Of a stretch of 51,474 nucleotides of DNA, positions 363-50,945 are shown one piece after another. The stretch lies in the sequence record PZ445410.1. One strand, given 5' to 3'. Source of the DNA: a phage. The notes beneath the pieces were generated by a model. That model searched no databases and was not told the DNA's origin. It saw only the letters and a list, made by a program, of their open reading frames with translations. A program made the position numbers and the translations under genes. Numbering within the stretch: the stretch's first letter is position 1; each line of letters opens with the position of its first letter.

Positions 363-363
363 A

Positions 364-405
364 TAGCACGAATTGTTAAAACTCAAATGTGGGGCCAGGT
401 ATAAT
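364..405 (+). promoter_or_regulatory. TAGCAC-box promoter-like cassette (TAGCACGAATTGTTAAAAC, spacer, TATAAT at 400-405)
   Basis: Conserved 19-nt element directly after upstream stop; GGCC..GGCC inverted repeat flanks the TATAAT; gene start 31 nt downstream. Confidence 0.5.
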
Positions 406-435
406 GGCCTCACTTTCAACGAAGGAGATAAAACG

Positions 436-1193: not shown

Positions 1194-1351
1194 CCTGGAT
1201 TCTATTTGTGATTATCACAAGCTACAATTCAGCCGCCATTGAGTCTCGCGAGTTCCACGGTGAATCAAGATGTCAGGCCGCGAGAGAGCAAGTAATTTTG
1301 CATATGTCAGATAACGATAAAGAAGTTGAAGTATTCTGCATTCGTAAATAG
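1190..1351 (+). CDS. small hypothetical protein (53 aa), not in ORF track
   Basis: ATGA overlap with phosphatase stop, GGAGG RBS; stop TAG is the first triplet of the next TAGCAC-box. Confidence 0.35.
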   Translation: MTWILFVIITSYNSAAIESREFHGESRCQAAREQVILHMSDNDKEVEVFCIRK

Positions 1352-1391
1352 CACTTTTTGCAAAAACAGATTGTCGGGCTTGCGGTATAGT
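1349..1391 (+). promoter_or_regulatory. TAGCAC-box promoter-like cassette (variant TAGCACTTTTTGCAAAAAC; TATAGT at 1386-1391)
   Basis: Motif plus GGGCTT..AAGCCC inverted repeat around the -10-like hexamer; gene start at 1423. Confidence 0.45.
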
Positions 1392-1422
1392 AAGCCCATC
1401 GACAACAAACGAGGATTAAATC

Positions 1423-2062: not shown

Positions 2063-2653
2063 ATGAAGCGAGACATTATCATCCTTAACGGACCGCCAGG
2101 AGTTGGCAAGGATACGCTTGCGGCATACTTAACTGGCCATCGTTACGCAGCCGTTAAAGCGTCGTTTAAGCAACCGATGTTTGATATTGCATTCTCCATG
2201 CTTGGCGTTTACCTATATGACGAGTTCATTGATCTGTATAACGACCGCGAGCAGAAAGAAAAGCCTCAAGCAATCTTGCAAGGCAATTCGCCTCGCAAGT
2301 TCATGATCTGGATTAGCGAAGAAGTCATGAAGCCAGCTTTTGGCGAGCAATATTTCGGAAATCGCATGGTTGAGCAAGTACACGAGATGTACAGAGATTT
2401 GGCTGTTGTAATTAGTGATGGCGGATTCCCTGAAGAAATCAAGCCGCTCGTTAAGGCAGGCCATGAAGTTCACATTTGCCGACTGCATCGCGAAGGATTC
2501 ACGTTTGATGGCGATTCGCGAAACTATATTGACCTGAGCGGATACCATCACCGAGTCAAGCATTACGACTTCACAATGATTGATGGCGAGCCAGAAAAGA
2601 CTGTTGACGAGATCATCAAAACGGTGCAGTGGAAACACACAAAGATTGAATAG
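2063..2653 (+). CDS. P-loop nucleotide kinase (T4 gp1 dNMP kinase-like)
   Basis: Walker A GPPGVGKDT near N-terminus; GKDT..A..Y.AVK pattern resembles dNMP kinase as I recall it; start chosen at internal ATG with GGAG RBS. Confidence 0.5.
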   Translation: MKRDIIILNGPPGVGKDTLAAYLTGHRYAAVKASFKQPMFDIAFSMLGVYLYDEFIDLYNDREQKEKPQAILQGNSPRKFMIWISEEVMKPAFGEQYFGNRMVEQVHEMYRDLAVVISDGGFPEEIKPLVKAGHEVHICRLHREGFTFDGDSRNYIDLSGYHHRVKHYDFTMIDGEPEKTVDEIIKTVQWKHTKIE

Positions 2654-2693
2654 CACGAATTGCTAAAAGCGGGGCACAATGCCTCGCTATAAT
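2651..2693 (+). promoter_or_regulatory. TAGCAC-box promoter-like cassette (variant TAGCACGAATTGCTAAAAG; TATAAT at 2688-2693)
   Basis: TAG of motif is the kinase stop codon. Confidence 0.45.
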
Positions 2694-2723
2694 ACAAACA
2701 CCAATCAACGAGAGGAAATCATC

Positions 2724-3707: not shown

Positions 3708-3995
3708 ATGGCTAAAAGCAATCGTAAAATGTTGATTAACGCATTCGAAAAGGAAGCGCTTGAGCGTGGTTGGAATGACTCATTTCACACAGCAAACTGT
3801 ATCCGCCGTTACGGATTCAAGGATTGCCGATCCTGGGCGCGTCAAATGGCTTCATGGTATGATCTTGATGCGCATTACCTTGATATGGATTGCGCCCTGG
3901 TTGAAATGATTGAGCAGGCCGCACTAGAGGATCGACCATTAACGCAATCTGATTTTGACGATTTTGTGCGCGATGAAATCTATTACATGAGCTAA
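3708..3995 (+). CDS. hypothetical protein (95 aa)
   Basis: AAAGGAGGAAA RBS before ATG. Confidence 0.55.
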   Translation: MAKSNRKMLINAFEKEALERGWNDSFHTANCIRRYGFKDCRSWARQMASWYDLDAHYLDMDCALVEMIEQAALEDRPLTQSDFDDFVRDEIYYMS

Positions 3996-4039
3996 TAGCA
4001 CTTTTTGTTAAAACTTCCGCGAGGGCATTTGTTAAAGTG
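3996..4039 (+). promoter_or_regulatory. TAGCAC-box promoter-like cassette (weak -10-like TAAAGT)
   Basis: Exact 19-nt motif directly after stop codon; gene start at 4071. Confidence 0.35.
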
Positions 4040-4070
4040 TCCTCATTGAAGCGAAACAGAGTAAATCAAA

Positions 4071-6690: not shown

Positions 6691-8258
6691 TGCTGATTTG
6701 GGAAGACTTAACAGCGGCGCAAAAACGCGCCATTAAGGAAATGAGCGAATATTCATTCGAAAAGATGATCCGCATTTGGTTTCAACTTCTCCAGGGGCAA
6801 AGGTTCTTAGGAAACTGGCATTTCAGTTACCTATGCAGCGAAGTTGAAAAAATCATCAAAGGCGAGTCACAGAATGTAATTTTCAACATAACGCCAGGCA
6901 GCGGTAAAACAGAGATATTCTCGATCCACATGTCACCTTATGCGTCATTGAAAAGTAAGAAGGTGAGAAATCTTAATTTGTCGTTTAGTGATGGCCTTGT
7001 CCAGCAGAACAGCAACCGCATCAAAGAGATTATTGGTTCTCCAGAATGGCAGGAGCTATGGCCTGGAAAGCTGGCAAAGGCGAGCGCAAAGGATTTGATT
7101 GTAACCGATGGCGGCAAGGTTAAATTGCAAGTTAACTCGCGATCAATTGGTGGTCAGGTTACTGGTCTGCGTGGCGGCTACATGGACGATGGTTTTACTG
7201 GTATGTTGGTTCTTGATGATCCAGACAAGCCGGATGACATGCTTTCTAAGGTGAAGCGCGAAGCCGGACACATGCGCCTAAAGAACACGGTGCGATCGCG
7301 TCGAATGAAAGACACTACGCCAATTGTGATGGTTCAGCAACGTCTACACGTCAATGATTCAACATGGTTCATGACAAACGGCGGCATGGGCGGCATCCAG
7401 TTTAAGGTGGTCAGTATTCCAGCGCTCGTTACTAAGGAATATCGCGAAACTCTTCCTGATTGGTTAAAGCCTGAGTTTGATCGCGATGTTTTGTCCAGTA
7501 AGCCAGTGATGATTGATGGCGTTGCTCATTATTCATTCTGGCCTGCTAAGGAAAGCGCTGAGGAATTACTTGCACTTCGCAATGCTGATCCGTACACGTT
7601 CGCTAGTCAGTATCAGCAACAGCCTGTTGCGCTTGGCGGTAACGTGTTTAAAACAGAGTGGTTTCAGTATTACGGCAGCAGCGAGAAATGCACGCTACCA
7701 AAACCGGATCGCTTTGAATATACATTTATCACGGTTGATACCGCGCAGAAAACAGGTGAGCTTAACGACTACTCCGTGATCTGTTATTGGGGGATGTATA
7801 AAGATCGCGTTTACTTCATTGATGGTGTTCGCGGAAAATGGGAAGCACCAGACCTTGAGAATAATTTTGTTGCGTTCGTTAATCAGTGCTGGAAGCGCAA
7901 TAAAGAATGCGGAACGTTGCGAAGGATTCATGTTGAAGATAAGTCATCTGGCACTGGCTTGATTCAGAGTGCAGCGAAAAAAATCATGATCAAGATCAAT
8001 CCCGTTCAGCGCGATAAAGACAAGGTTACTCGCGCAATGGACGCAGCGCCAGTAATGCGCGCCGGACGCGTAGCACTTCCAGAATCGCATCCTATGCTGG
8101 CTGAGATACTAGCTGAAGTTGCGGCGTTTACATTCGATGATAGCCATCCTCATGATGATATTGTTGATAACATCATTGATGCGGTTAACATTGAAATGAA
8201 CATGGCAGATGATCCGGTTGGAAGAATGAAAAAATTGGCAGGTTTGCGGAACAAATAG
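6690..8258 (+). CDS. terminase large subunit
   Basis: 522 aa, GSGKT P-loop-like motif, directly upstream of portal. Confidence 0.75.
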   Translation: MLIWEDLTAAQKRAIKEMSEYSFEKMIRIWFQLLQGQRFLGNWHFSYLCSEVEKIIKGESQNVIFNITPGSGKTEIFSIHMSPYASLKSKKVRNLNLSFSDGLVQQNSNRIKEIIGSPEWQELWPGKLAKASAKDLIVTDGGKVKLQVNSRSIGGQVTGLRGGYMDDGFTGMLVLDDPDKPDDMLSKVKREAGHMRLKNTVRSRRMKDTTPIVMVQQRLHVNDSTWFMTNGGMGGIQFKVVSIPALVTKEYRETLPDWLKPEFDRDVLSSKPVMIDGVAHYSFWPAKESAEELLALRNADPYTFASQYQQQPVALGGNVFKTEWFQYYGSSEKCTLPKPDRFEYTFITVDTAQKTGELNDYSVICYWGMYKDRVYFIDGVRGKWEAPDLENNFVAFVNQCWKRNKECGTLRRIHVEDKSSGTGLIQSAAKKIMIKINPVQRDKDKVTRAMDAAPVMRAGRVALPESHPMLAEILAEVAAFTFDDSHPHDDIVDNIIDAVNIEMNMADDPVGRMKKLAGLRNK

Positions 8259-8284
8259 CACGAATCGACAAACCAATATATAAT
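8256..8284 (+). promoter_or_regulatory. TAGCAC-box variant (TAGCACGAATCGACAAACC) with TATAAT at 8279-8284
   Basis: TAG is the terminase stop; followed directly by a terminator-like hairpin. Confidence 0.4.
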
Positions 8285-8285
8285 C

Positions 8286-8312
8286 AAAGGCTGGTAAATC
8301 CAGCCTTTTTTA
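8286..8312 (+). terminator. intrinsic terminator-like hairpin (possible attenuator)
   Basis: AAAGGCTGG-TAAAT-CCAGCCTTT then TTTTT. Confidence 0.5.
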
Positions 8313-12057: not shown

Positions 12058-12492
12058 ATGAGTGATTATTCAGTCATTGTTGGCGCTGAGTCGCCAGGGT
12101 GCATGGTCGATTCTTCAATAATGGTGATTAACGGATCTTTCGTGTGCGGAGATGAATTTATTGCGCCAGGTAAGATTGTGCGACTATCACATATAACAAA
12201 TGGATACAAAATAGCAAGTGTTAATGGGGATCTTGTTATTGGCGTGGCAGTAAGGCCGCCGGACTCGTGCATATATGAGGAGTGTGATCCCGTCAATGTG
12301 GTTAGTAGAGGTAGTGTGTGGTGCTTAACTTCTGAGAGCGAAGCGCCAGAATATGGAGATAAAGTATTTGTAACGCAAGATGGAGATGCGGCATACAGTG
12401 AAGGCGACTTGCTGACTGGTTGGATCTTTACTGGCGAACATGTAAAGATTGATCATGATTCATATATTGTCGGGGTAAGCATTATCGCATAA
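12058..12492 (+). CDS. structural protein, paralog 2
   Basis: Tandem paralog of 11500..12012. Confidence 0.5.
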   Translation: MSDYSVIVGAESPGCMVDSSIMVINGSFVCGDEFIAPGKIVRLSHITNGYKIASVNGDLVIGVAVRPPDSCIYEECDPVNVVSRGSVWCLTSESEAPEYGDKVFVTQDGDAAYSEGDLLTGWIFTGEHVKIDHDSYIVGVSIIA

Positions 12493-12504
12493 CACAAAAT
12501 TATG

Positions 12505-12532
12505 TTGCACGTTTAACAAAAAATGCTATCAT
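12505..12532 (+). promoter_or_regulatory. sigma70-type promoter (TTGCAC, 16 nt, TATCAT)
   Basis: Hexamers with 16-nt spacer; spacer contains a reverse-oriented partial TAGCAC-box (TTAACAAAAAATGCTA). Confidence 0.4.
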
Positions 12533-14712: not shown

Positions 14713-15148
14713 AAACTACACGATAAGGGAATTTCACGGCAACATTGATGCGTGGATAAACGCCGTTGATAATGGCCTGAAAGATTGCGTTGAGTTGTTC
14801 GCCGAAAAAGTGCATACAGATCTTGTTAAGCGTTCTCCGGTTGATACTGGTCGTTACCGTGCAAACTGGCAGGTAACAGCAAACAAGCCGCCATTGTATG
14901 CGCTTAACCAGTACGATAAGCACGGAGACAAAACGATCGCGGAAGGCAAGCGAGCCATATACGCGATTTTACGAGGTGGCGGCGCAGTAAGAGCCATTTA
15001 TTTTTCTAACATGCTTATTTATGCTAACGCGCTTGAGTACGGTCATTCAAAACAAGCGCCAGCGGGTGTGCTTGGGGTTGTAGCGGTTAAGTTGAGATCT
15101 TATATGGCTGAAGCAATAAAAGAGTCGAGGGCTAAAAATGCACTATGA
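14705..15148 (+). CDS. tail completion protein (putative)
   Basis: Gene order. Confidence 0.4.
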   Translation: MAKNYTIREFHGNIDAWINAVDNGLKDCVELFAEKVHTDLVKRSPVDTGRYRANWQVTANKPPLYALNQYDKHGDKTIAEGKRAIYAILRGGGAVRAIYFSNMLIYANALEYGHSKQAPAGVLGVVAVKLRSYMAEAIKESRAKNAL

Positions 15149-16207: not shown

Positions 16208-16232
16208 CAAGGGGCGTTGCGCCCCTTTTTTT
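16208..16232 (+). terminator. intrinsic terminator
   Basis: GGGGCG-TTG-CGCCCC then T7. Confidence 0.7.
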
Positions 16233-16246
16233 GTTACTGTACAATC

Positions 16247-16289
16247 ATGATACACGATTCATAATCAATTCTTTTAACAAAAAGTGCTA
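16247..16289 (-). promoter_or_regulatory. TAGCAC-box cassette in reverse orientation (TATCAT at canonical spacing)
   Basis: Exact reverse complement of the motif 15 nt upstream of the G gene ATG; points into the 16208-16232 terminator. Confidence 0.3.
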
Positions 16290-16303
16290 TCAAGGAGAAA
16301 GAA

Positions 16304-16621
16304 ATGTCAAAAATGAAATTGACGATTGGGCCGCTTCCTGACTTTAAATTACCAGTGAAATTTGCAATGCCTAACGGAGAAGATCAAACAATTATCTTCA
16401 CAGTTCGCCACCGCAAAACAAGTGAGATTCACGAGCGCTACACGTCAGATACTCCAATGAGCGATGTTGAAATGATCACCTTCCTTGCTTCTGGTTGGAA
16501 TCTTGATGATGAATTTAACGAAGAAAATATTAAACAGCTTCTTGATTACTACCCAGCAACAGCAATCGGATTAACTAGCGCATACATGAAAGCGCTTGCG
16601 GGGCAGCGAGTAAAAAACTAA
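16304..16621 (+). CDS. tail assembly chaperone (gpG-like)
   Basis: 105 aa ORF before tape measure, ends just after slippery heptamer. Confidence 0.65.
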   Translation: MSKMKLTIGPLPDFKLPVKFAMPNGEDQTIIFTVRHRKTSEIHERYTSDTPMSDVEMITFLASGWNLDDEFNEENIKQLLDYYPATAIGLTSAYMKALAGQRVKN

Positions 16622-16971: not shown

Positions 16972-19644
16972 ATGTCAGAACAATACGCAGGCTTGACGCT
17001 TGGGGTTGATGTATCTCAACTCAACAATGCTGTAAAGTCTTTGCAGCAATTCAAGAAGGCAAACGACGACGCAAAGGGAAGCGTTGAGAGTTTTGTTGAT
17101 TCAGAGGTTGTTGCAAGACAAAGAGCCAAACAACTGGCTGAGGAATTGGCAAAGCAGAAGCAAGAATTTAAAGCAATTCAGTCGGCAATAGATCCGACAG
17201 CAAGCAAAATGGATAAGTTGCGCCAGGCTGCGACACAGCTTGATGCACTATGGAAAAAAGGAATTGTGCCGGATGATACATTCTTTGAATTAGGTTCAAT
17301 TCTTGAGACACAGCAAAACAAGCTGATCGCAACGAAAAAGGCGCTAACAGAAGAAGGCCGAGCGGCGATTGAGGAAGCAAAGAATAAAGCCAGGGCAGAG
17401 GCTGAGGCCAGAAAGTTCATTGCGGCATTACAGGCACAAGCAGACGCAGCAGAAAAGACAAAATCAGAACTTGTTGAAATGAGAGCCGCACAACTTGGAG
17501 TTAGTGCGGAGGCCGCGCCATTTATTGCAAAAATGAAGGAGCAGGAAAAACAAGCCTCAAAACTTGGCGTTTCTATGGGGCAGTACAAGCAAGCAATGGC
17601 GCAATTGCCAATGCAGATCACTGACGTTGTTACTTCTCTTGCTTCAGGAATGCCAGTATGGATGATCGCAATCCAGCAGGGCGGGCAGATCAAGGACTCA
17701 TTCGGCGGTGTTGCTAATACTTTTAAAGCGCTAATGACATTTGTCACGCCGCTAAGTGTTGGAATGACGGCGCTGACTGGTGCTCTTGGGTATGCAGCAT
17801 ATAACGCTTACAAAGCCAACGCACAACTGAAGGAGATCACAAAAACCGTTCAGGATGTAACAGGTCTTTCCGGTGAGTTTGCAGAGCGGATCGCAACTGG
17901 AATCCAGGCGCTATCTGACAAGACAGGAGAGAGCGCAGACAATATCGCAAAGGCTTACATAAGCACTAAGGATGGAGCAAGCGAGGCTATACAAAAACTC
18001 GTCGATGTTGGATTTACCTATGACGAAGCAAAGGCAAAAGTAAACGAATACAAAAACGCATCAAGTTTTGTAAGTCTTAACAATGAAATTGCTGATCACA
18101 AAAACAAAGTTCTTGAGCTTGGCGATTCATGGTATGCGGTCTTAAAAGCAAAACGTGATTATGCTTCACCGTCCGGCGGGCTGTTGGGGAAAGAGCTTGG
18201 TTATGTGAATCCAATGCTGCAATTTGCGAAGAACACCTATGAGGATATAGGAAAGATCGTAAAAGATGCGAATAAGGATATGGCGGAACGAGCAGCACGC
18301 ATCGACAGAGAAAACCTTTCCTTAAACAGAGTTCGAGCGGCGCAAGAGGCTTTAAACAAAGCCATAGAGGATCAGAAGAACGTAGCAAGGACAGCAGACG
18401 AAGAGTTGAAAAAACGAGCGGCTGAGAACGTGGAGTTCAGGAGAAAAGAGCTTGAAGAGGCGAAGAAGGCGCAGCAGCAAAAGGAAAAAGTTGGTGGAGT
18501 TGTAAAAGCACCAACAGAGCAGCTTGATAAGGAGCTATATGTTCTCAAAGCGCAACTTGAAACTCTGAAAGAGCACCGAACTGTAAATGATGTTATTTCA
18601 CGCCAGAGGCAATCTTTGTGGAGTATTGAAAAGCAGATCCAGATCCTGGAGGAAGCGCAAAGCAAACGTAAGCTGACAAAAGCGGAACAGGCGTTACTAA
18701 ACGAGCAAAAAACAGTTCTTGCCATGGCAAAAGAAAAGGCCGAGATAGGCGATCAGATTGTTTTGCAACAGAGAAAGAACAAGCAATACCAGGAAGGGCT
18801 AAAGTTCATTCAGCAAACTTCAGATGCCATTGATGCTATGAACTTGCGACAGTCTGGAGCTACAGATCTGCAAATCCAGCGAGAGCTTGAATTGAAAAAG
18901 TTGCGAACTGATTATGTTGCTGGCGGAGGTAGTATCGACGATGAAATTTATCAGCAGATGGAAGAAAAGCTGAAGGAGTATTACGCCACTGAGGATCAGC
19001 TAAGAAATAACTGGATTGCAGGAGCAAAAAACGCATGGGAGGTTTACGGACAAGATGCAATGGATATGTACGGAAACGTGCAAGATATTGCAAGCGAGGC
19101 GCTCAACGGTCTAACCAACCAAATGGCTACATTCCTTGCAACAGGCAAGGCAAACTTTAAGAGCTTCGCAACGTCAATCATCCAAATGATTATCCAGATG
19201 ATCACGAAGATGGTTATCTTTAATGCCATATCTGGTGCGATTGGCGGTGACACTTGGACGATTGGAAGCCTTCTTAAAAATGTTGGATTTGCAACTGGTG
19301 GATACACTGGCGACGGCGGGAAGTATGAGCCAGCAGGTGTTGTCCATAAAGGCGAGTTTGTCATGACGAAGGAGGCCACGAAGCGGATCGGAGTTGGAAA
19401 TCTTTACAAAATGATGCGCGGTTATGCAAATGGCGGCGTTGTTGGCGGAACTTCATACACTGGCGGCGGAGTTTCATCTGGAGCAACAAATCTTAATATT
19501 GGTGGGATCAGCGTTGATATTAACAACGGAAACGATCCGAAAGGGTTGGAGACTGGCGTAAAAATGATTTTCACTGATATGATTAAGCGTTCCTGTACGC
19601 AGGGTGGGGAAGTTTACGAATTTGTTATGTCTAAGCGGGGGTGA
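16972..19644 (+). CDS. tail tape measure protein
   Basis: 890 aa, long Ala/Glu/Lys/Gln-rich coiled-coil-like stretches, Gly-rich C-terminal part; position after G/GT. Confidence 0.8.
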
Positions 19645-22174: not shown

Positions 22175-22208
22175 TCAACAAATCAAATAGCACAAAAGGT
22201 GAAAAAGC

Positions 22209-25200
22209 ATGGCTGAAAATATGATAACGGGCAGTAAGGGTGGATCATCAAAACCTTATGTGCCGAAAGAGATGGAAGATAACCTGATCTCAATCAACAA
22301 AATCAAAATCCTTCTTGCCGTTTCCGATGGTGAGTGCGATCCAGATTTCACGCTTCGCGATCTGTATCTCGATGATGTTCCGGTAATTGCAGATGATGGA
22401 ACTGTTAACTATCAGGGTGTGAAAGCTGAATTTCGACCCGGAACGCAGACGCAAGATTACATCCAGGGGTTTACTGACACATCAAGCGAAGTGACGCTGG
22501 CGCGTGACATTACGACGACAAATCCTTATGTAATTTCCGTAACCAACAAAACATTATCGGCTATCAGAATCAAAATGCTAATGCCAACAGGCATTAAGCA
22601 AGAGGATAACGGCGATCTTGTCGGCGTTAAGGTTACTTATGCTGTTGATATGGCTGTTGACGGAGACTCTTACAAAGAGGTATTGCTAGACACTATCGAA
22701 GGTAAAACGCGTTCCGGTTACGACAGAAGCCGGAGGATTGACCTTCCGGCATTTAATGATCGCGTATTACTTAGGGTTAGAAGGGTTACGGCAGACAGCA
22801 CATCTTCTCGTGTTACTGATCTGATTAAACTACAAAGTTACGCTGAGGTTATTGATGCAAAATTCCGTTATCCTCTGACTGGTCTTGTTTACGTTGAATT
22901 TGACAGCGAATTGTTCCCAAATCAGATCCCTAACATTTCAATCAAGAAGAAATGGAAGCTGATTAACGTTCCGAGTAACTACGATCCTGTTTTGAGAGAG
23001 TATCACGGTTCATGGGATGGAACATTCAAAAAAGCATGGTCAAATAATCCAGCATGGGTGCTTTATGACATTATCACAAACCAGCGATATGGATTAGATC
23101 AGCGAGAGCTTGGTGTGCAGGTTGACAAATGGAGTCTTTACGAAGCGGCGCAATACTGCGATCAGAAAGTGCCGGACGGAAAAGGCGGCACAGAGCCGCG
23201 TTATCTATGCGACGTTGTGATTCAAAGCCAGATTGAGGCTTATCAGCTTATTCGTGATATTTGCTCAATCTTCAGAGGCATGAGCTTTTGGAATGGAGAG
23301 AGCTTGTCAATCGTCATTGATAAGCCGCGCGATCCGTCGTACATCTTCACAAATGACAATGTTGTTGATGGTGATTTTCAGTACACAACAGCAAGTGAAA
23401 AGAGCATGTACACGCAGTGCAACGTGACGTTCGATGACGAACAAAACATGTATCAACAGGACGTAGAGGGTGTATTCGACACAGAGGCCGCATTGCGATT
23501 TGGATACAATCCTACAAGCATAACCGCGATCGGATGTACACGCAGGAGTGAGGCTAATCGGCGCGGTCGATGGATACTAAAAACCAACTTGCGCAGCACT
23601 ACGGTAAACTTTGCTACTGGACTGGAAGGCATGATCCCATCAATAGGTGATGTGATTGCTATTGCTGACAATTTTCACAGCAGCAACCTTAAATTAAACC
23701 TATCAGGGCGCGTGATGGAAGTTTCCGGCTTGCAGGTGTTCGTTCCGTTTAAGATTGACGCGCGACCAGGTGATTTCATTATCATCAACAAGCCGGACGG
23801 AAAGCCAGTTAAGCGCACAATCTCAAAAGTAAGCGGTGACGGAAAAACCATTGAACTAAACATTGGGTTTGGGTTTGAAGTTAAACCTGACACGGTTTTT
23901 GCAATCGACCGCACTGATATTGCATTGCAGCAATACGTTGTAACGAGTATCGGCAAAGGTGATGATGATGATGAATTTACATACTCCATCACGGCTGTTG
24001 AATATGACCCTAACAAATACGACGAGATTGATTATGGAGTAAACATTGACGACAGGCCAACTTCAATTGTCCAGCCTGACACAATGGCAGCGCCTGAAAA
24101 TGTGCAAATATCCTCATACTCGCGAATTGTCCAGGGTGCAAGCGTTGAGACAATGGTTGTGTCGTGGGATAAAGTACCTTACGCATCGCTGTATGAAATG
24201 CAATGGCGAAAAGGTGATGGCAACTGGCTGAATACACCACAGACCGCAAACAAAGAAATTGAGGTTGAAGGTATTTATTCAGGAAACTACCAGGTAAGGG
24301 TTAGATCTGTTTCCGCTTCAGGTTCTACGTCTCCGTGGTCCAGAATTGTGACAGCATCACTGACTGGTAAGGTAGGAGAGCCAGGCGCGCCAGTTAACTT
24401 AACCGCATCCGACAATGAAGTGTTTGGCATTCGTGTTAAGTGGGGGATGCCAGAAGGGAGCGGAGACACGGCATACATTGAGCTTCATCAGTCGCCGGAT
24501 GGAACGGCTGAAAACTCAAGCCTGCTAACGCTGATCCCGTATCCACAATATGAATACTGGCACGGTACGCTTCCGGCTGGTCATGTTGTATGGTATCGGA
24601 TCAGGAGCGTAGACAGGATCGGCAACGTTTCCGGTTGGACTGATTTTGTTAGAGGTATGGCTTCAGATGATGTGGAGGCTGTTTTAGGAGATATTCTTGA
24701 TAAGATTTTTGATACTGAAGCAGGTCAGGATCTTAAAGAGAACGCCATTGACAGTGCAAACAAGATAAAGGACCAGGCGCAAGCAATCATCCAGAATGCT
24801 CTTGCTAATGATGCTGATATTAAGTGGACGCGAGTACAAAATGGAAAGCGAAAGGCTGAATATGGTCACGCGCTTGAGCTTATCGCCACAGAGACTGAGG
24901 CGCGAGTTACGCAGATTGAAGAATTGAGGGCGTCAATCGACGAGGATATTGTTTCAAGCATAAAGACAGTGCAGGAGGCTATCGCCACAGAATCTGAAAC
25001 GCGAGCAACTCAAATAAATGCTTTGGATTCAAAATTCACAACTGAAATTGACGGTGTAAAACGCGATACAGCCGCAAGCATTAATCAGGTTAATCAAACC
25101 ATTGCCAATGAGTCAGAAGCGCGCGCGCAGGCCGTTAACGCGCTTGATGCGAAGTTCACAAAGGAGATCGAAGATTTAAACGGAGTCATTAAGACTGAGG

Positions 25201-26982: not shown

Positions 26983-27013
26983 TTTGGTGTCTCCTTAGTT
27001 GTTGTTGGTTGCA

Positions 27014-27055
27014 ACTATACACGATCTTGCGGTGGGCGTTTAGCAAAAAGTGCCA
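27014..27055 (-). promoter_or_regulatory. TAGCAC-box variant (TGGCACTTTTTGCTAAACG) with TATAGT
   Basis: Motif at canonical spacing, oriented toward the lipoprotein gene. Confidence 0.4.
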
Positions 27056-27119
27056 TTCTGTTCTTTTTGTTCTCCTGCGTTCTCAAATCTGCGGAGGCTT
27101 AAATTTAGCTCAAAATGTG

Positions 27120-27373: not shown

Positions 27374-27427
27374 TTGTTATCAAAGATGTCTAGAACGTTG
27401 TTAGAACAGAAAAAACAAAATAACTAT

Positions 27428-27455
27428 TGACTAAACGCATCAAATAGCTACAATG
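27428..27455 (+). promoter_or_regulatory. sigma70-type promoter (TTGACT, 16 nt, TACAAT)
   Basis: Near-consensus hexamers; A/T-rich upstream region. Confidence 0.55.
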
Positions 27456-28545: not shown

Positions 28546-28626
28546 ACAGCACAAATAGCTAAACAAATGAAAAATGCGGTGTTATAATTCACAGCATAAG
28601 TTAACAGTAAACGAGAGGAAATAAAT

Positions 28627-36048: not shown

Positions 36049-36103
36049 ATACACCTCAAACAAAAAAGCCTGACAGATGATAACATCATGCCAGGCATTG
36101 TTT

Positions 36104-36577
36104 TTAGCAATTAGTGCTTTCAGGTTTATACAGGAATCCGCCAGGTTCATAATCTGACATTCTTACCACTCGCAACATTTCACGCTTATCACATCTCTTT
36201 GTGAGCGGTTTGCCATTGGAATCAAATCGCAGGTCTGGACGACAGAATGATGCGCGATAGCCTTGACATCCATATTTTTTGTAATCGTTATGCACCTTTT
36301 GAGCGCCAGCGGCTGAAATCATACCGCGAACGCGCCACTGATTTACAGTTTGCTGGCTAACGTTAAGACGTTTTGCCATTGCTGACACGCTTCCGTAATA
36401 CTCAATAAGGATGTCAAGTCGCGCTTTTAGTCCGGCGCGCACTTCATCTTTTAAAACATAGTATCCCGTAGGGCGCTTGCGCTTCTTCTTATCCTTTCCT
36501 CTTCGAGTTCCGTTATTGCCATTAATTGTGCGCTTGTCAATCTTGCCTGTTGATACTGCGATTCGTTGCTCTTTCAT
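36104..36577 (-). CDS. HTH DNA-binding protein (Cro/YdaS-like)
   Basis: SVSAMAKRLNVSQQTVNQWRVRG helix-turn-helix; basic N-terminus; divergent from helicase gene. Confidence 0.5.
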   Translation of the reverse strand: MKEQRIAVSTGKIDKRTINGNNGTRRGKDKKKRKRPTGYYVLKDEVRAGLKARLDILIEYYGSVSAMAKRLNVSQQTVNQWRVRGMISAAGAQKVHNDYKKYGCQGYRASFCRPDLRFDSNGKPLTKRCDKREMLRVVRMSDYEPGGFLYKPESTNC

Positions 36578-36591
36578 TATTCATTCTCCAA

Positions 36592-36633
36592 TAGCATTTT
36601 TTGTTAAACGATGATTTAATGATTGTGTATTAT
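36592..36633 (+). promoter_or_regulatory. TAGCAC-box variant (TAGCATTTTTTGTTAAACG) with TATTAT
   Basis: Motif at canonical spacing upstream of helicase. Confidence 0.45.
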
Positions 36634-36666
36634 ACACGCCAAATGGCATTACTCAAAGGTTTTAGA

Positions 36667-38706: not shown

Positions 38707-39112
38707 TAAAGGCGATTATCTTGAGTTTTACGAAAGAGATCCGACGGATACGCTAAAAGAGGAATCACACCAGATTGGGGCGTTTCAATGGTTAACTTAT
38801 GCTCATCCTGAATTGCTGGCATGGCATACGAAAAACGAGGGCGACAAGGGAATCGCCACAGCAATGATGGATCAGCAAGCTGGACTTGTTAAGGGAGTAA
38901 GTGATTTTATCATCCTGATTGGATTAAAAGGCCGTTACCCGTTCGCGGCAATAGAGATGAAGCGCGTCAATAAGTCCGGCAAGGGGAAGGCTTCACCAGT
39001 CAGCAAGGAGCAAAAAGCCTTCTTGCGCCGCGTGCGTGAGCTTGGCGGATTCGCTGCCGTAACATACGGATATAAGCAATTCATGATCGCGGTAGAATAC
39101 ATGATGAAATAG
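38693..39112 (+). CDS. VRR-NUC domain nuclease (putative)
   Basis: PD-(D/E)XK-like VSDFIIL...AAIEMKR; SKEQKAFL...G pattern; overlaps helicase stop. Confidence 0.5.
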   Translation: MAMTDKGDYLEFYERDPTDTLKEESHQIGAFQWLTYAHPELLAWHTKNEGDKGIATAMMDQQAGLVKGVSDFIILIGLKGRYPFAAIEMKRVNKSGKGKASPVSKEQKAFLRRVRELGGFAAVTYGYKQFMIAVEYMMK

Positions 39113-39152
39113 CACTTTTTGTTAAAACAGGCGCGAAGGATTGCGCCATAAT
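39110..39152 (+). promoter_or_regulatory. TAGCAC-box promoter-like cassette (CATAAT at 39147-39152)
   Basis: TAG is the upstream stop; GGCGC..GCGCC inverted repeat in spacer. Confidence 0.5.
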
Positions 39153-39186
39153 AACACAAGTTCAACAAGCAACAGGTAATTAAGAA

Positions 39187-39892: not shown

Positions 39893-40153
39893 ATGCAGAA
39901 AGAAAGAAGAGTTGTACTTAATGAAGATGGCGAATTTCTTTTGTATCGCGCTATGGTATGCGATGCACTTGATAAAAACCCTAACGTGAAAAAGATGATT
40001 GATTGCGATCCGTGGGAATTTTCAAGCGCATTAGATATGAGCTTTGAGGAGACAAAAAAACTCCCACTTGAAAAATGGCACGAACAAATCAGAAATGACA
40101 TGCAAGAATTTGTCGATTCGTGGAATTTTCAGAACGGAATGATCCACCAATAG
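39893..40153 (+). CDS. hypothetical protein (86 aa)
   Basis: GGAG RBS then ATG; track ORF 39560..40153 extends this frame back over the methylase and is rejected. Confidence 0.45.
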   Translation: MQKERRVVLNEDGEFLLYRAMVCDALDKNPNVKKMIDCDPWEFSSALDMSFEETKKLPLEKWHEQIRNDMQEFVDSWNFQNGMIHQ

Positions 40154-40193
40154 CACTTTTTGTTAAAACGCCCGACCTTGTGTCGGGCATAAT
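40151..40193 (+). promoter_or_regulatory. TAGCAC-box promoter-like cassette (CATAAT at 40188-40193)
   Basis: TAG is the upstream stop; GCCCGAC..GTCGGGC inverted repeat in spacer. Confidence 0.5.
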
Positions 40194-40225
40194 TATTTCA
40201 TCAAAACGAACAAGAGGAAAACAAA

Positions 40226-43352: not shown

Positions 43353-43370
43353 ATTCGTTCCGATGAAACA

Positions 43371-43413
43371 AATATACCCGATACGAGATCGGGAGTTTTA
43401 ACAAAAAGTGCTA
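43371..43413 (-). promoter_or_regulatory. TAGCAC-box promoter-like cassette (TATATT)
   Basis: Exact motif on minus strand; its TAG is the stop of ORF 43411..43605. Confidence 0.5.
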
Positions 43414-43605
43414 TTCAATACGCTTTACAGTAACCAACAAAACGCCGTCCTCATCACACAAATTATGCTCTGATATATCAAACGCTCGCATGTCAGAATG
43501 AATGAGCGTTAACATTGCGTGCATGAAGTCGTCATGTGAGATTGAACTTACGGCGCAGAACTTCAATATTTTGTCTATTAGCATTTGACGTAAACAATTC
43601 TTCAT
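43411..43605 (-). CDS. hypothetical protein (start uncertain)
   Basis: Track ORF; overlaps the next ORF by 74 nt so the true start may be internal. Confidence 0.35.
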   Translation of the reverse strand: MKNCLRQMLIDKILKFCAVSSISHDDFMHAMLTLIHSDMRAFDISEHNLCDEDGVLLVTVKRIE

Positions 43606-45510: not shown

Positions 45511-45538
45511 TAATGATAACTCCTTTTTTGATGCGGCA

Positions 45539-45581
45539 ATAATACCGCACCAATGCTACCCGCATTTAACAAAAAATGCTA
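45539..45581 (-). promoter_or_regulatory. TAGCAC-box variant (TAGCATTTTTTGTTAAATG) with TATTAT
   Basis: TAG is the stop of ORF 45579..45800. Confidence 0.45.
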
Positions 45582-45800
45582 TTTGATCCGCTCTATGCTA
45601 ACTAAGATTTTTTCTGGTTCCCTTGCGCTATAGCAATTCGCGGTTACGGAATCAGCAAAATCAAAATAAAGTGATTTGTGGTAAGAAAGACCAATCAGCC
45701 ATCCAACCATCGTTTTCTTTATTGGCCTGACTATATCGCCAGGCTTGAAGGTTTTTGTTGCTGAATGAGTCACCTTATAGCGATATTCAGCCTTGATCAC
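45579..45800 (-). CDS. hypothetical protein (73 aa)
   Basis: ORF. Confidence 0.5.
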   Translation of the reverse strand: MIKAEYRYKVTHSATKTFKPGDIVRPIKKTMVGWLIGLSYHKSLYFDFADSVTANCYSAREPEKILVSIERIK

Positions 45801-46183: not shown

Positions 46184-46214
46184 CGTTTATTTCTCCTTTC
46201 GTTCCGGTGAAGTG

Positions 46215-46257
46215 ATTATGCCAGGCTTTTACACCTGGCTTTTAACAAAAAGTGCTA
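46215..46257 (-). promoter_or_regulatory. TAGCAC-box promoter-like cassette (CATAAT)
   Basis: TAG is the stop of the methyltransferase-like gene; CCAGG..CCTGG inverted repeat in spacer. Confidence 0.5.
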
Positions 46258-46965
46258 TTTTGCGTTTGCTTCAAAGACGGCGCGAGCAAAACCGCGCGGT
46301 GTGAGGGAGCGGATCATCTTTGTGCGAGATGATTTTCCGCCAGTTTTGGCCCAACCAGGATTATCCTTGTCGTCCTCTTTCGGAAGGATTGTTGCGCGCG
46401 GAGGAATAACAAAACCGTTTCCAGTCCAAAGACATGTTTTCTTAAAGTACCGATCCCGCGCCGGAATAATATCAGGGAAGTCGGGATGCTTATCATCTTC
46501 CGGCAGATAGCCAGCATAATCGCACGGATGGAACGTATAATCAGGCTTGCGCCATAACGTTGACAGCTTGCCTACAGGATTCTCTATCATGTACGGAACA
46601 CCGAAATAATCAGCGATATGCGACGCAATTTTGCAAGTGTCGGCGGCCTCATCCTGGAAAGATGGATTCTCAAGGCGTTTTTTGGCCCAATGGCGAGATC
46701 CGCTATTTGCAAGGTCAGTGCATGGAGGGAATGCCATAATAAAATCAGGCTTACCCCAATTTTCAAGTTTTGCGGTATATTTGAATAGCTCATCAATCCA
46801 CACATTAACGTAAAAAATATTGTCGTGGATTATGCGCACTGATTGGTAGTCGCCATGATCTGCATCATCGTAATTAAAGCAAATGCACTTATATCCAGCG
46901 TCGGCCCAATCTTTAACAGCCTTTCCAGATCCATCAAACAAAGAGAAAATTAAACCTTTATACAT
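46255..46965 (-). CDS. compact C5-cytosine methyltransferase-like protein
   Basis: FDGSGK (motif I-like), FPPCTD (PC motif), MIENPVG (ENV-like) in canonical order; only 236 aa, no obvious target-recognition domain. Confidence 0.45.
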   Translation of the reverse strand: MYKGLIFSLFDGSGKAVKDWADAGYKCICFNYDDADHGDYQSVRIIHDNIFYVNVWIDELFKYTAKLENWGKPDFIMAFPPCTDLANSGSRHWAKKRLENPSFQDEAADTCKIASHIADYFGVPYMIENPVGKLSTLWRKPDYTFHPCDYAGYLPEDDKHPDFPDIIPARDRYFKKTCLWTGNGFVIPPRATILPKEDDKDNPGWAKTGGKSSRTKMIRSLTPRGFARAVFEANAK

Positions 46966-48050: not shown

Positions 48051-48081
48051 TTTTAAATCCTCGTTCGTTGTCGATGCGCAT

Positions 48082-48124
48082 AATATACCAATCAGAGGCG
48101 CATCGGTTTTAACAAAAAGTGCTA
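48082..48124 (-). promoter_or_regulatory. TAGCAC-box promoter-like cassette (TATATT)
   Basis: Motif follows TAA stop of ORF 48126..; CGATGCGC..GCGCATCG inverted repeat flanks the -10-like box. Confidence 0.5.
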
Positions 48125-48125
48125 T

Positions 48126-48920: not shown

Positions 48921-48958
48921 TTGCTTTCTCCTGATGGGTATCTCGTTTCGATGGGATA

Positions 48959-49001
48959 ACTATACCAGGTTATCCCGATCGTGCTTTAACAAAAAGTGCT
49001 A
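48959..49001 (-). promoter_or_regulatory. TAGCAC-box promoter-like cassette (TATAGT inside GGGATAAC..GTTATCCC hairpin loop)
   Basis: Motif on minus strand at canonical spacing; first promoter of the leftward early operon. Confidence 0.5.
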
Positions 49002-49264
49002 TTTGCTGACTGGTCATTATTCCACATATTCCATTAATCAGGAATAACAGGAATAATTCATTCGCGATCACCTGGATTGTGAGACTTTGAGTTTGATCAA
49101 TTTTAATCAGTTGATTAACTTTTTGTGTGGAGGGGATAGAGAAATGCGGCCCTCTTGCATCCTTTCCGGCAATCCTGGCGCGCACATCTGTTATTTCTGT
49201 TCCCCGTGTTATCTCAAATAAGCCTCCGCACTTTTAGATAACAGAATCGGCGTTCATCAACAAA

Positions 49265-49480
49265 AAGAACAAAATAAAATTTATATATATACCCATAAAA
49301 TCAATAAGTTAGTTATATATGTATTTATATTTGTTATTTACTGTTGAGCTTGTTCTATTGGTATATGGTGGGGTGGTATTGTTTGTGGTGATATGTATGT
49401 GTGATTGTATATTTTTTAATCAATGGTGATGTGTGGTGATTTTTGTATGTATATATATGGGTATGGGGCAATCCTCCGTC
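49265..49480. repeat. AT-rich, C-depleted iteron-like element, copy B
   Basis: Shares core with copy A; three GGTGAT words; about 110 nt with almost no C on the plus strand. Confidence 0.6.
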
Positions 49481-49593
49481 AACCAAGTCAACAAGGTCAT
49501 TTTTAACAGAAAAACCAATGGCTTAACTGAAGCATTTTGTTATCTTTAAACACGCCATGCGCCAAAAATTGTTATTAAAACACAAAAATACAT

Positions 49594-49621
49594 TGACATG
49601 CAGGAAGGGCAAGGCAATAAT
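49594..49621 (+). promoter_or_regulatory. sigma70-type promoter (TTGACA, 16 nt, AATAAT)
   Basis: Consensus -35; A/T-rich upstream region. Confidence 0.5.
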
Positions 49622-50128: not shown

Positions 50129-50388
50129 TGAATAAGGCATTAATTGGAGTTTTGATTGCAATTGCTACCCTGACCGGATGCGAAAAGGCATCTGAATCAA
50201 CGGTAGTCGTAGGCGTGGAGTCAGATTTTAAAGTCGGTCGCCTGTTTACTGTTGATGGATGCACTGCGTACCGATTCTATGACAACGGTCGGGCAATCTA
50301 TTACACCAATTGTAAGGGCGCAACGGATAGCACATACCGCAGCGGCAAAAACGTAATGCACCAACAAGTCACAACAGATATGAAATAG
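50128..50388 (+). CDS. lipoprotein (86 aa), early-expressed
   Basis: Signal peptide MNKALIGVLIAIATLTGC with lipobox. Confidence 0.55.
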   Translation: MNKALIGVLIAIATLTGCEKASESTVVVGVESDFKVGRLFTVDGCTAYRFYDNGRAIYYTNCKGATDSTYRSGKNVMHQQVTTDMK

Positions 50389-50428
50389 CACTTTTTGTTA
50401 AAACGCCAGGTGCAAATCCTGGCATAAT
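50386..50428 (+). promoter_or_regulatory. TAGCAC-box promoter-like cassette (CATAAT at 50423-50428)
   Basis: TAG is the lipoprotein stop; GCCAGG..CCTGGC inverted repeat in spacer. Confidence 0.5.
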
Positions 50429-50460
50429 AGCCTCATCGAAACGAGATTGAGGAAAACAAA

Positions 50461-50847: not shown

Positions 50848-50848
50848 A

Positions 50849-50891
50849 TAGCACTTTTTGTTAAAACTCAAAAACGATAACCAGGCATAAT
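50849..50891 (+). promoter_or_regulatory. TAGCAC-box promoter-like cassette (CATAAT at 50886-50891)
   Basis: Motif directly after TAA stop. Confidence 0.5.
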
Positions 50892-50945
50892 ACACACATA
50901 GGGCGGCACGGCGTCGCCCAGTTAAACCAATCAGGAGAAAGCACT

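Follow-up and report, generated by a model that had tools for sequence, protein, structure and literature searches.

The repeated element dealt with in this work was described in 2024 in the phage TLS genome, whose authors reported a 21-nt direct repeat (consensus aaATAGCACnnnTTGnTAAAA) in 18 intergenic copies, DR1 to DR18, which follow the direction of transcription, lie about 76 nt 5' of start codons and fall into TTT, GAA and AAA subtypes; they reported the same type of repeat also for T1, Rtp and Rogue1 (PMC11447400). These authors left its function as an open question, suggesting stoperator, enhancer-site or UP-like roles, and found only three sigma-70 promoters in the TLS genome, namely P01, P51 and P57 (PMC11447400). 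Here, the corresponding element is analyzed in a phage DNA of 51,474 nucleotides (sequence record PZ445410.1; this whole stretch is referred to as the window), which is about 95% identical to T1-like phages (Drexlerviridae; Hanrivervirus-type) such as herni, egaa and pSf-1, and whose gene order is collinear with that of T1. The repeats of the window share the TLS consensus aaATAGCACnnnTTGnTAAAA, the intergenic position, the orientation with transcription and the distance before start codons, and they are the same element as the DR repeats, the odd copies (DR7, DR8, DR10 and DR11) having their counterparts too. The repeat itself is already known; the TLS paper describes neither its function nor a -10 box that accompanies it at fixed spacing, and makes no mention of the match to the marbox or of the enrichment of hairpins (PMC11447400).

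A second body of knowledge that bears on this element comes from the E. coli activators MarA, SoxS and Rob. Their DNA site, the marbox, has the consensus AYNGCACNNWNNRYYAAAYN (PMC2064960, PMC3709825), and chromatin immunoprecipitation sequencing (ChIP-seq) of MarA yielded the consensus gcactaattgctaaa, which includes a partial dyad and a TTG (PMC5684230). In class II promoters the marbox stands in forward orientation, overlaps the -35 and is centred between -36 and -55 (PMC12052159; also PMC6900184), the marbox of micF being centred at -41 to -41.5 (PMC8811837, PMC9638938). Activation complexes containing Rob, SoxS or RamA have been solved by cryo-electron microscopy. The structure of the Rob-polymerase-micF complex revealed that Rob contacts -47G, -45A, -38G, -37T and -35/-34, and that it prevents sigma region 4 from occupying the -35 element (PMC9178005). 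As developed below, the evidence tips towards the notion that the phage repeats, together with the -10 boxes that follow them, form class II marbox promoters that would be served by host activators of the MarA/SoxS/Rob type.

A first-pass annotation of the window had described a genome-wide family of promoter-like cassettes under the pattern TAGCAC-N5-TTGTTAAAAC, which has just one, chance-level match in the window; the length of 19 nt given in its text is the correct one and corresponds to TAGCAC-N3-TTGTTAAAAC (at position 364, TAGCAC-GAA-TTGTTAAAAC). With up to three mismatches, this 19-mer matched 17 times in the window against 0.68 expected, and none of 100 shuffles reached 17. All 16 sites listed in that annotation are present, those at 8256(+) and 27055(-) requiring four mismatches, and further copies were found at 12528(-), 16289(-), 36119(-), 28546(+) and 22187(+). 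The general anatomy had also been described properly. Thus, a -10-like hexamer begins 17-18 nt past the 19-mer in 17 cassettes (site 8256 has none), which, given a background rate of 8.3% and 17 hits in 20, corresponds to a binomial P of 3.5e-16. The distance from TTGTTA to the hexamer is 22 bp, the TAG is the stop codon of the upstream gene in eight copies and follows a TAA, directly or one A later, in four more, and the start codon comes 70-75 nt past the motif in most copies, with the next gene about 72 nt after. The cassettes precede the non-structural genes of the window, and in 17 of them box, -10 and downstream gene lie on one strand.

The anatomy of the cassette was then defined on 189 unique members from 46 related sequences (T1, the window and 44 viral contigs encoding the Cro-like regulator of the family, discussed below). 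The box is conserved at offsets -3 to 18 and is followed by a spacer that is nearly information-free. The -10 hexamer occupies offsets 37-42 (T.65, A.80, T.82, a.47, A.71, T.84), a G is found at offset 35, which is position -14, in 84% of the cassettes, and a CA stands at offsets 48-49, with the A present in 80%; this is 7 nt past the hexamer, the distance at which sigma-70 promoters begin transcription. The T at -15 of an extended -10 is not conserved, and no -35 hexamer was found at a spacing of 16-19 bp, positions -35 to -30 being occupied by the AAAAC that ends the box. Across the relatives, spacers and leaders have diverged freely and the box is unchanged. With the -10 and the conserved CA as reference, the box spans approximately -50 to -31, the location at which class II activators bind, and its centre falls at about -40.5 to -41.5. 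Read in this way, the cassettes have all the appearance of real sigma-70 promoters relying on the -10 region.

The box proper is a 20-mer, A-TAGCAC-TTT-TTG-T-TAAA-AC, with the asymmetric general form A-TAGCAC-nnW-TTG-Y-TAAA-AC. When the window was searched with the host consensus AYNGCACNNWNNRYYAAAYN, allowing at most one mismatch, 20 matches were obtained against 1.34 expected, a number that none of 100 shuffles reached; 17 of the 20 are boxes of the repeat family, 14 of these 17 belong to cassettes predicted to work, and the search recovered the copy at 28546, a perfect one that had escaped the phage 19-mer. Individual copies match 12-14 of the 14 specified positions, and at least 13 are matched in 157 of the 189 family cassettes. 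As for the ChIP-seq consensus gcactaattgctaaa, it is matched at 15/15 positions by the copy at 36119(-), at 14/15 by the GAA subtype and at 12/15 by the subtype seen most often; family-wide, 15/15 is reached by 19 cassettes and 14/15 by 28, and its TTG is invariant in the phage boxes. Variation between copies stays inside the degeneracy of the consensus (T/C at Y2, T/A at W10 and T/C at Y14).

The likeness extends to the architecture of the promoter. The E. coli micF promoter reads ACAGCACTGAATGTCAAAAC, 18 nt, TAGAAT, and the phage cassette ATAGCACTTTTTGTTAAAAC, 18 nt, (T/C)ATAAT, with 15 of the 20 box positions identical and with equal spacing and orientation (the gap between box and hexamer is 17-18 bp in the cassettes and 18 bp in micF); the marbox of the mar operon, ATGCCACGTTTTGCTAAATC, is identical to the phage TTGCTA variant at 16 of 20 positions. 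In the cassettes, as in micF-type class II promoters, an asymmetric 20-bp box with GCAC and (C/T)AAA lies in forward orientation over the -35, is centred near -41, 18 bp from the -10, and the promoter depends on this -10. When +1 is placed at the conserved CA, the positions contacted by Rob coincide with the near-invariant phage bases G2, A4, G11, T/C12, A14 and A15. Moreover, conservation of the box is asymmetric, position 1 being an A and positions 16-18 AAA, which fits a monomeric reader with a pair of helix-turn-helix (HTH) motifs and not a palindromic operator. These predicted promoters differ from micF in being carried by a virulent phage, in about 17 near-identical copies per 51 kb, with a box that is merged with the stop codon upstream of it and with a GC-rich hairpin placed either in the spacer or around the -10.

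These features can be integrated in the following model. Each cassette would be an activator-dependent class II sigma-70 promoter, with a good -10, a G at -14 and no usable -35, and the box would be a marbox for MarA, SoxS and Rob (in Klebsiella, RamA), monomeric activators with two HTH motifs each. Among the three, Rob is favoured for its abundance and stability: it would bind the box in forward orientation, displace sigma-70 region 4 from the -35 and hold the polymerase by contacting sigma region 4 as well as the alpha C-terminal domain, as in the solved micF complex, and transcription would start about 7 nt past the -10. In some copies, the hairpin and the T-rich -10 region would probably damp read-through from upstream, and the three canonical promoters (49593+, 27427+ and 36656-) would need no activator. 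The proposal of the first-pass annotation that the cassettes are factor-dependent promoters is upheld as far as their promoter nature is concerned, and the architecture indicates that a factor is probably needed; the part that made this factor a phage product of the MotA kind is not, a host activator being probably the likelier one.

Support for a host reader comes from the relatives. The box is kept, essentially invariant, in T1, TLS, Klebsiella-phage-like contigs and phage Vc1, whose proteins have diverged to about 50% identity, and it is equally invariant in phages of Escherichia, Klebsiella, Salmonella and other hosts; an invariant box in spite of diverged phage proteins is what would be expected of a conserved host reader. 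Vc1, a Vibrio phage and hence from a different host, still carries cassettes. Pfam scans of 55 non-structural open reading frames (ORFs) yielded no AraC-type HTH, MotA or AsiA, and phmmer, run with E. coli MarA against the six-frame translation of the window, gave no significant match (best E-value 0.73); a phage-encoded MarA-like protein was rejected on these grounds. The broader idea that T1-like Drexlerviridae have handed the activation of most of their promoters to host MarA/SoxS/Rob/RamA, by means of class II marboxes of consensus grade that are joined to stop codons and to hairpins resembling terminators, is advanced more tentatively, as plausible but short of probable.

Several points weigh against a host reader of the MarA/SoxS/Rob type. 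Growth of T1-like phages on laboratory strains is fast. The copies are more nearly identical than a degenerate host consensus requires, which could point to a more specific reader; consensus position 19 (Y) is usually an A in the phage, and the phage has a T where the B site of the soxbox has a C (TAAA vs CAAA). In addition, MarA and SoxS are scarce in unstressed cells, and Rob is reportedly largely sequestered (PMC5684230). Four to five copies (8255, 12529-, 16290- and 22187 among them) misfit a simple class II promoter, and the predicted starts are derived solely from the positions of the -10 and the CA. Finally, as far as the literature could be searched, neither a link between marbox and repeat nor 5'-end mapping for the T1-like family was found, the TLS paper alone being relevant; within these limits, the assignment of the repeat to the marbox appears to be absent from the literature.

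The analogy with the middle promoters of T4, drawn in the first-pass annotation, holds in outline, as in both cases a box replaces the -35 before a normal -10 in a second tier of promoters that stands beside canonical early ones. Indeed, the two-tier layout that had been put forward is present in the window, with three canonical sigma-70 promoters and about 17 box cassettes, and so are the two canonical promoters already reported, at 27427 (TTGACT-16-TACAAT) and 49593 (TTGACA-17-AATAAT). However, the MotA box differs in sequence, has its centre near -30 and requires the phage proteins MotA and AsiA, whereas the cassette box is centred near -41 and neither these domains nor AraC-type ones were found in the ORFs scanned, so a T4-type middle promoter was rejected, and the idea of a MotA-like phage factor is not supported. 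A sigma-54 promoter (TGGCAC-N5-TTGC) was rejected as well: such promoters have GG and GC exactly 10 bp apart at -24/-12 and no -10 hexamer, whereas the phage box has mostly AG instead of GG, a spacing of 8 bp and a -10 of the sigma-70 type at fixed distance.

The alternative that survives best, and that we regard as unlikely although worth keeping, is a box reader encoded by the phage itself, either an activator that replaces the -35 contact or a later repressor of the stoperator or Cro-like kind. The best candidate would be the Cro-like HTH regulator encoded at 36104-36577(-), the only recognizable transcription factor of the phage, which is made from a canonical promoter, has homologues in 842 phage records and is modelled as an all-alpha Cro fold (predicted local distance difference test, pLDDT, of 85). 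The partial dyad of the box, TAGCA-N5-TG(C/T)TA, would suit a dimeric Cro fold, but this dyad is already within the host marbox consensus, and it is broken by the T/C polymorphism in a box that is conserved asymmetrically and has AAA at either flank on one strand. The near-identical copies suggest a stringent reader, and a phage factor would explain more easily the fast growth in unstressed hosts; yet the predicted recognition helix of the regulator varies among the relatives and the box is constant.

A further point in favour of the regulator comes from the region 36591-36661, where its promoter (-) faces the helicase cassette (+), both having in common a near-palindromic -10, GTGTATAATACAC (36625-36637). 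As a result of this arrangement, the reversed box is found at about +15 to +35 of the regulator transcript, in the 5' untranslated region and beside the ribosome-binding site; the layout is conserved in T1, in Klebsiella-phage-like contigs and in Vc1, and, judged from the sequence, it looks like a mutually exclusive switch with autoregulation. Against a phage activator, whichever it may be, stand the absence of any MotA, AsiA or AraC homologue from the scans mentioned above and the fact that DUF7174, the first product of the P01-equivalent promoter, gave a model (pLDDT 78) with no PDB match at E <= 0.001; furthermore, if such an activator were needed, the whole leftward arm would be without a factor-independent promoter. 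Considering its variable recognition helix and the asymmetric conservation of the box, the Cro-like regulator was set behind the host activators as the preferred reader and kept as a rival. As regards a repressor, the stoperators of mycobacteriophage L5 are similar to the cassette box in being many short asymmetric sites, oriented with transcription in short intergenic gaps, but they bind a phage repressor, block elongation, belong to a temperate phage and have no fixed relation to a -10 (stoperators cited in PMC11447400). The N-terminal peptide of the regulator, DKRTINGNNGTRRGKDKKxRK, is invariant among the relatives and predicted to be disordered.

We consider it improbable that the cassettes are factor-independent promoters, in which a -10 with G at -14 would be combined with an A/T-rich box acting as UP-like or bent DNA, and whose uniformity would derive from cassette spread or from homogenization by recombination, as proposed for the mobile cassettes of T4-type phages. 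The latter, denoted as PeSL, are modules of early promoter plus stem-loop placed between genes and proposed as recombination sites; they resemble the cassettes described here in being repeated, compact promoter and stem-loop modules at gene boundaries in non-structural regions, but contain ordinary early sigma-70 promoters without an activator box. UP elements, in turn, have an A/T-only consensus at about -59 to -38, and this class was rejected because the phage box has invariant GCAC and TTG and runs from -50 to -31. Near-consensus -10 hexamers, the G at -14 in 84% of the cassettes, the T and A tracts flanking the box core and a location at gene-module boundaries, abutting stop codons as mobile modules would, all agree with factor independence, and an UP-like role was proposed by the TLS authors (PMC11447400). 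However, the most conserved bases of the box are GCAC and TTG and not the A/T tracts, the T at -15 of an extended -10 is not conserved, the divergence of spacers and leaders but not of the box indicates selection on the box and not recent copying, and the in-register match to micF would have to be a coincidence.

The GC-rich inverted repeats that had been noticed in the spacer or around the -10 proved to be a property of the family. A perfect stem of at least 6 bp is present in 52% of the 189 cassettes, compared with 9.5% of shuffles and 4.8% of coding controls, and one of at least 5 bp, at offsets 17-62, in 77% compared with 30% of shuffles, the mean folding energy being -11.6 vs -5.8 kcal/mol. 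Of the hairpins, approximately 41% are located in the spacer and approximately 38% bracket the -10. Some of these hairpins look like terminators from their sequence: three that directly follow the box are annotated as rho-independent terminators in the T1 GenBank record, and a T-tract, which either contains the -10 or comes after it, follows the hairpin in Vc1 as well as at 36070-36120. T-rich tails are found in some copies only (36070-36120, 40150, 43414 and 8255), most hairpins having no T-tract. A further role of the cassette, in damping or processing read-through that comes from the gene upstream, is the element of the model proposed with the least certainty. The enrichment of hairpins, the annotated T1 terminators, the clear T-tracts of Vc1 and 36070-36120 and, on the opposite strand, a hairpin followed by GTTTTAAC that resembles a terminator could all be accommodated if box and hairpin served termination, RNA processing or stability, or else recombination or replication, with an incidental -10-like hexamer, but this is very hard to reconcile with a -10, a G at -14 and a CA held at fixed distance from the box family-wide (P = 3.5e-16 in the window), with hairpins that mostly lack a T-tract, vary in position and do not include the box, and with 17 cassettes at a fixed distance before a co-oriented gene, so we hold it to be very improbable.

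The copies of the window, together with the canonical promoters and the regulator gene, are collected in Table 1. Transcription is predicted to start at 412, 1398, 2700, 4045, 28595, 36640, 39159, 40200, 50435 and 50898 on the plus strand and at 27007, 36070, 43364, 45532, 46208, 48075 and 48952 on the minus strand.

Table 1. Box cassettes, single boxes, canonical promoters and regulator gene of the window. Matches are given to the marbox consensus AYNGCACNNWNNRYYAAAYN (marbox) and to the MarA ChIP-seq consensus gcactaattgctaaa (ChIP).
Feature	Coordinates	Strand	Box	-10	Details	Matches or counterparts
Cassette	363..412	+	ATAGCACGAATTGTTAAAAC, 363-382	TATAAT, 400-405	17-nt spacer; predicted +1 ~412; ATG 436	13/14 marbox; 13/15 ChIP
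Cassette	1348..1398	+	1348-1367	TATAGT, 1386-1391	6-bp stem brackets -10
Cassette, GAA type	2650..2700	+	2650-2669	TATAAT, 2688-2693		14/15 ChIP
Cassette	3995..4045	+	3995-4014	TAAAGT, 4033-4038
Degenerate box	8255..8308	+	8255-8274	none at class II spacing	after large terminase gene, TAG = stop codon; strong bidirectional terminator, 9-bp hairpin 8286-8308
Reversed box	12479..12529	-	12529-12510	poor, at 18 nt	in late plus-strand operon, just upstream of capsid gene	conserved: T1 15067-15086, TLS DR7
Reversed cassette	16240..16290	-	16290-16271	TATCAT, at 18 nt	points into bidirectional terminator 16209-16227; just upstream of gene at 16304	conserved: T1 18831-18850
Box-like site, AAA type	22187..22206	+	22187-22206		ends 2 nt before ATG 22209 of 1192-aa tail protein	conserved: T1 25021-25040, TLS DR8
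Cassette	27007..27056	-	ATGGCACTTTTTGCTAAACG	TATAGT, 27019-27014		14/14 marbox
Canonical sigma-70 promoter	27427..27454	+		TTGACT-16-TACAAT	upstream of recE-like gene	TLS P51
Cassette	28546..28595	+	ACAGCACAAATAGCTAAACA	TG-extended TATAAT, 28583-28588	17-nt spacer; absent from first-pass annotation	14/14 marbox
Cassette	36070..36120	-	contains GCACTAATTGCTAAA	TATCAT, in hairpin loop	between regulator and primase genes; hairpin followed by TTTTTTGTTT	15/15 ChIP; TLS T57/DR10
Cro-like HTH regulator gene	36104..36577	-			157 aa; phrog_2856
Helicase cassette	36591..36640	+	36591-36610	TATTAT, 36628-36633	faces canonical promoter of regulator
Canonical sigma-70 promoter	36629..36656	-		TTGAGT-16-TATAAT	for Cro-like regulator; absent from first-pass annotation	TLS P57
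Cassette	39109..39159	+	39109-39128	CATAAT, 39147-39152	upstream of Dam methylase gene; 5-bp spacer hairpin
Cassette	40150..40200	+	40150-40169	CATAAT, 40188-40193	7-bp spacer hairpin 40170-40188 with T-rich tail
Cassette	43364..43414	-	43414-43395	TATATT	6-bp spacer hairpin with tail TATATTTGTT
Cassette	45532..45582	-	45582-45563 (GCAT variant)	TATTAT
Cassette	46208..46258	-	46258-46239	CATAAT	6-bp spacer hairpin
Cassette	48075..48125	-	48125-48106	TATATT	8-bp stem brackets -10
Cassette, first leftward	48952..49002	-	49002-48983	TATAGT	8-bp stem brackets -10
Canonical sigma-70 promoter	49593..49621	+		TTGACA-17-AATAAT	upstream of DUF7174 gene (true ATG 49658)	TLS P01
Cassette	50385..50435	+	50385-50404	CATAAT, 50423-50428	6-bp spacer hairpin
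Cassette	50848..50898	+	50848-50867	CATAAT, 50886-50891	longer leader (ATG 97 nt after motif start)

Some of these copies call for comment. The degenerate one at 8255-8308 may have arisen by decay of a cassette, or may do no more than bind the factor. The boxes at 12510-12529(-) and 16271-16290(-) are oriented against the late plus-strand operon, and transcription from the cassette at 16290(-) would run antisense for about 40 nt, up to the terminator 16209-16227. The box at 22187-22206 abuts the ATG of the tail protein and, for this reason, cannot be a class II promoter of that gene. At 36070-36120(-), the location of the -10 in a hairpin loop and the trailing TTTTTTGTTT imply that terminator and promoter are fused. 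Many family cassettes also have a conserved A-rich leader, CAUCGAAACGA, which runs from the predicted +1 (e.g., 50434-50446 and 40199-40211) and lies upstream of the ribosome-binding site.

With respect to the canonical promoters, only three sigma-70-like sites of this kind lie in sensible intergenic positions of the window, and inspection by eye revealed no convincing operator common to the three. Sites of canonical sigma-70 type are fewer than in shuffles in each third of the genome (22 vs 29.6, 26 vs 36.4 and 20 vs 32.7).

Among coliphages and Klebsiella phages, those of the T1-like group are some of the commonest, and many of them are therapy candidates. Reading the repeat as a marbox gives the question left open for TLS a concrete and cheaply testable hypothesis, and would supply the approximately 17 missing promoters. 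If correct, it would couple the expression of phage genes to signals of the host, for example bile salts, oxidative stress or salicylate, sensitivity to T1-like phages would shift with mutations or drugs altering mar/sox/rob activity, and phage development would be linked to the multidrug-resistance regulators MarA, SoxS, Rob and RamA, which bears on the combination of phages with antibiotics. Besides, the cassette packs a stop codon, an activator site, a hairpin and a promoter into one compact and portable unit, which could serve as a genetic part.

Two further observations were made. Between the divergent arms, at 49186-49560, there are about 375 bp of AT-rich non-coding DNA with degenerate direct and inverted repeats (TATATAT runs, GGTGAT/TGTGGTGA), which, from this composition, may be an origin or packaging region. 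Lastly, the records labelled as C. jejuni 'Campylobacter phage' (MG065638.1 and about 20 others) encode a regulator 100% identical to that of the window and match the window in their DNA; they probably represent a contaminating T1-like phage or a mis-assigned host.

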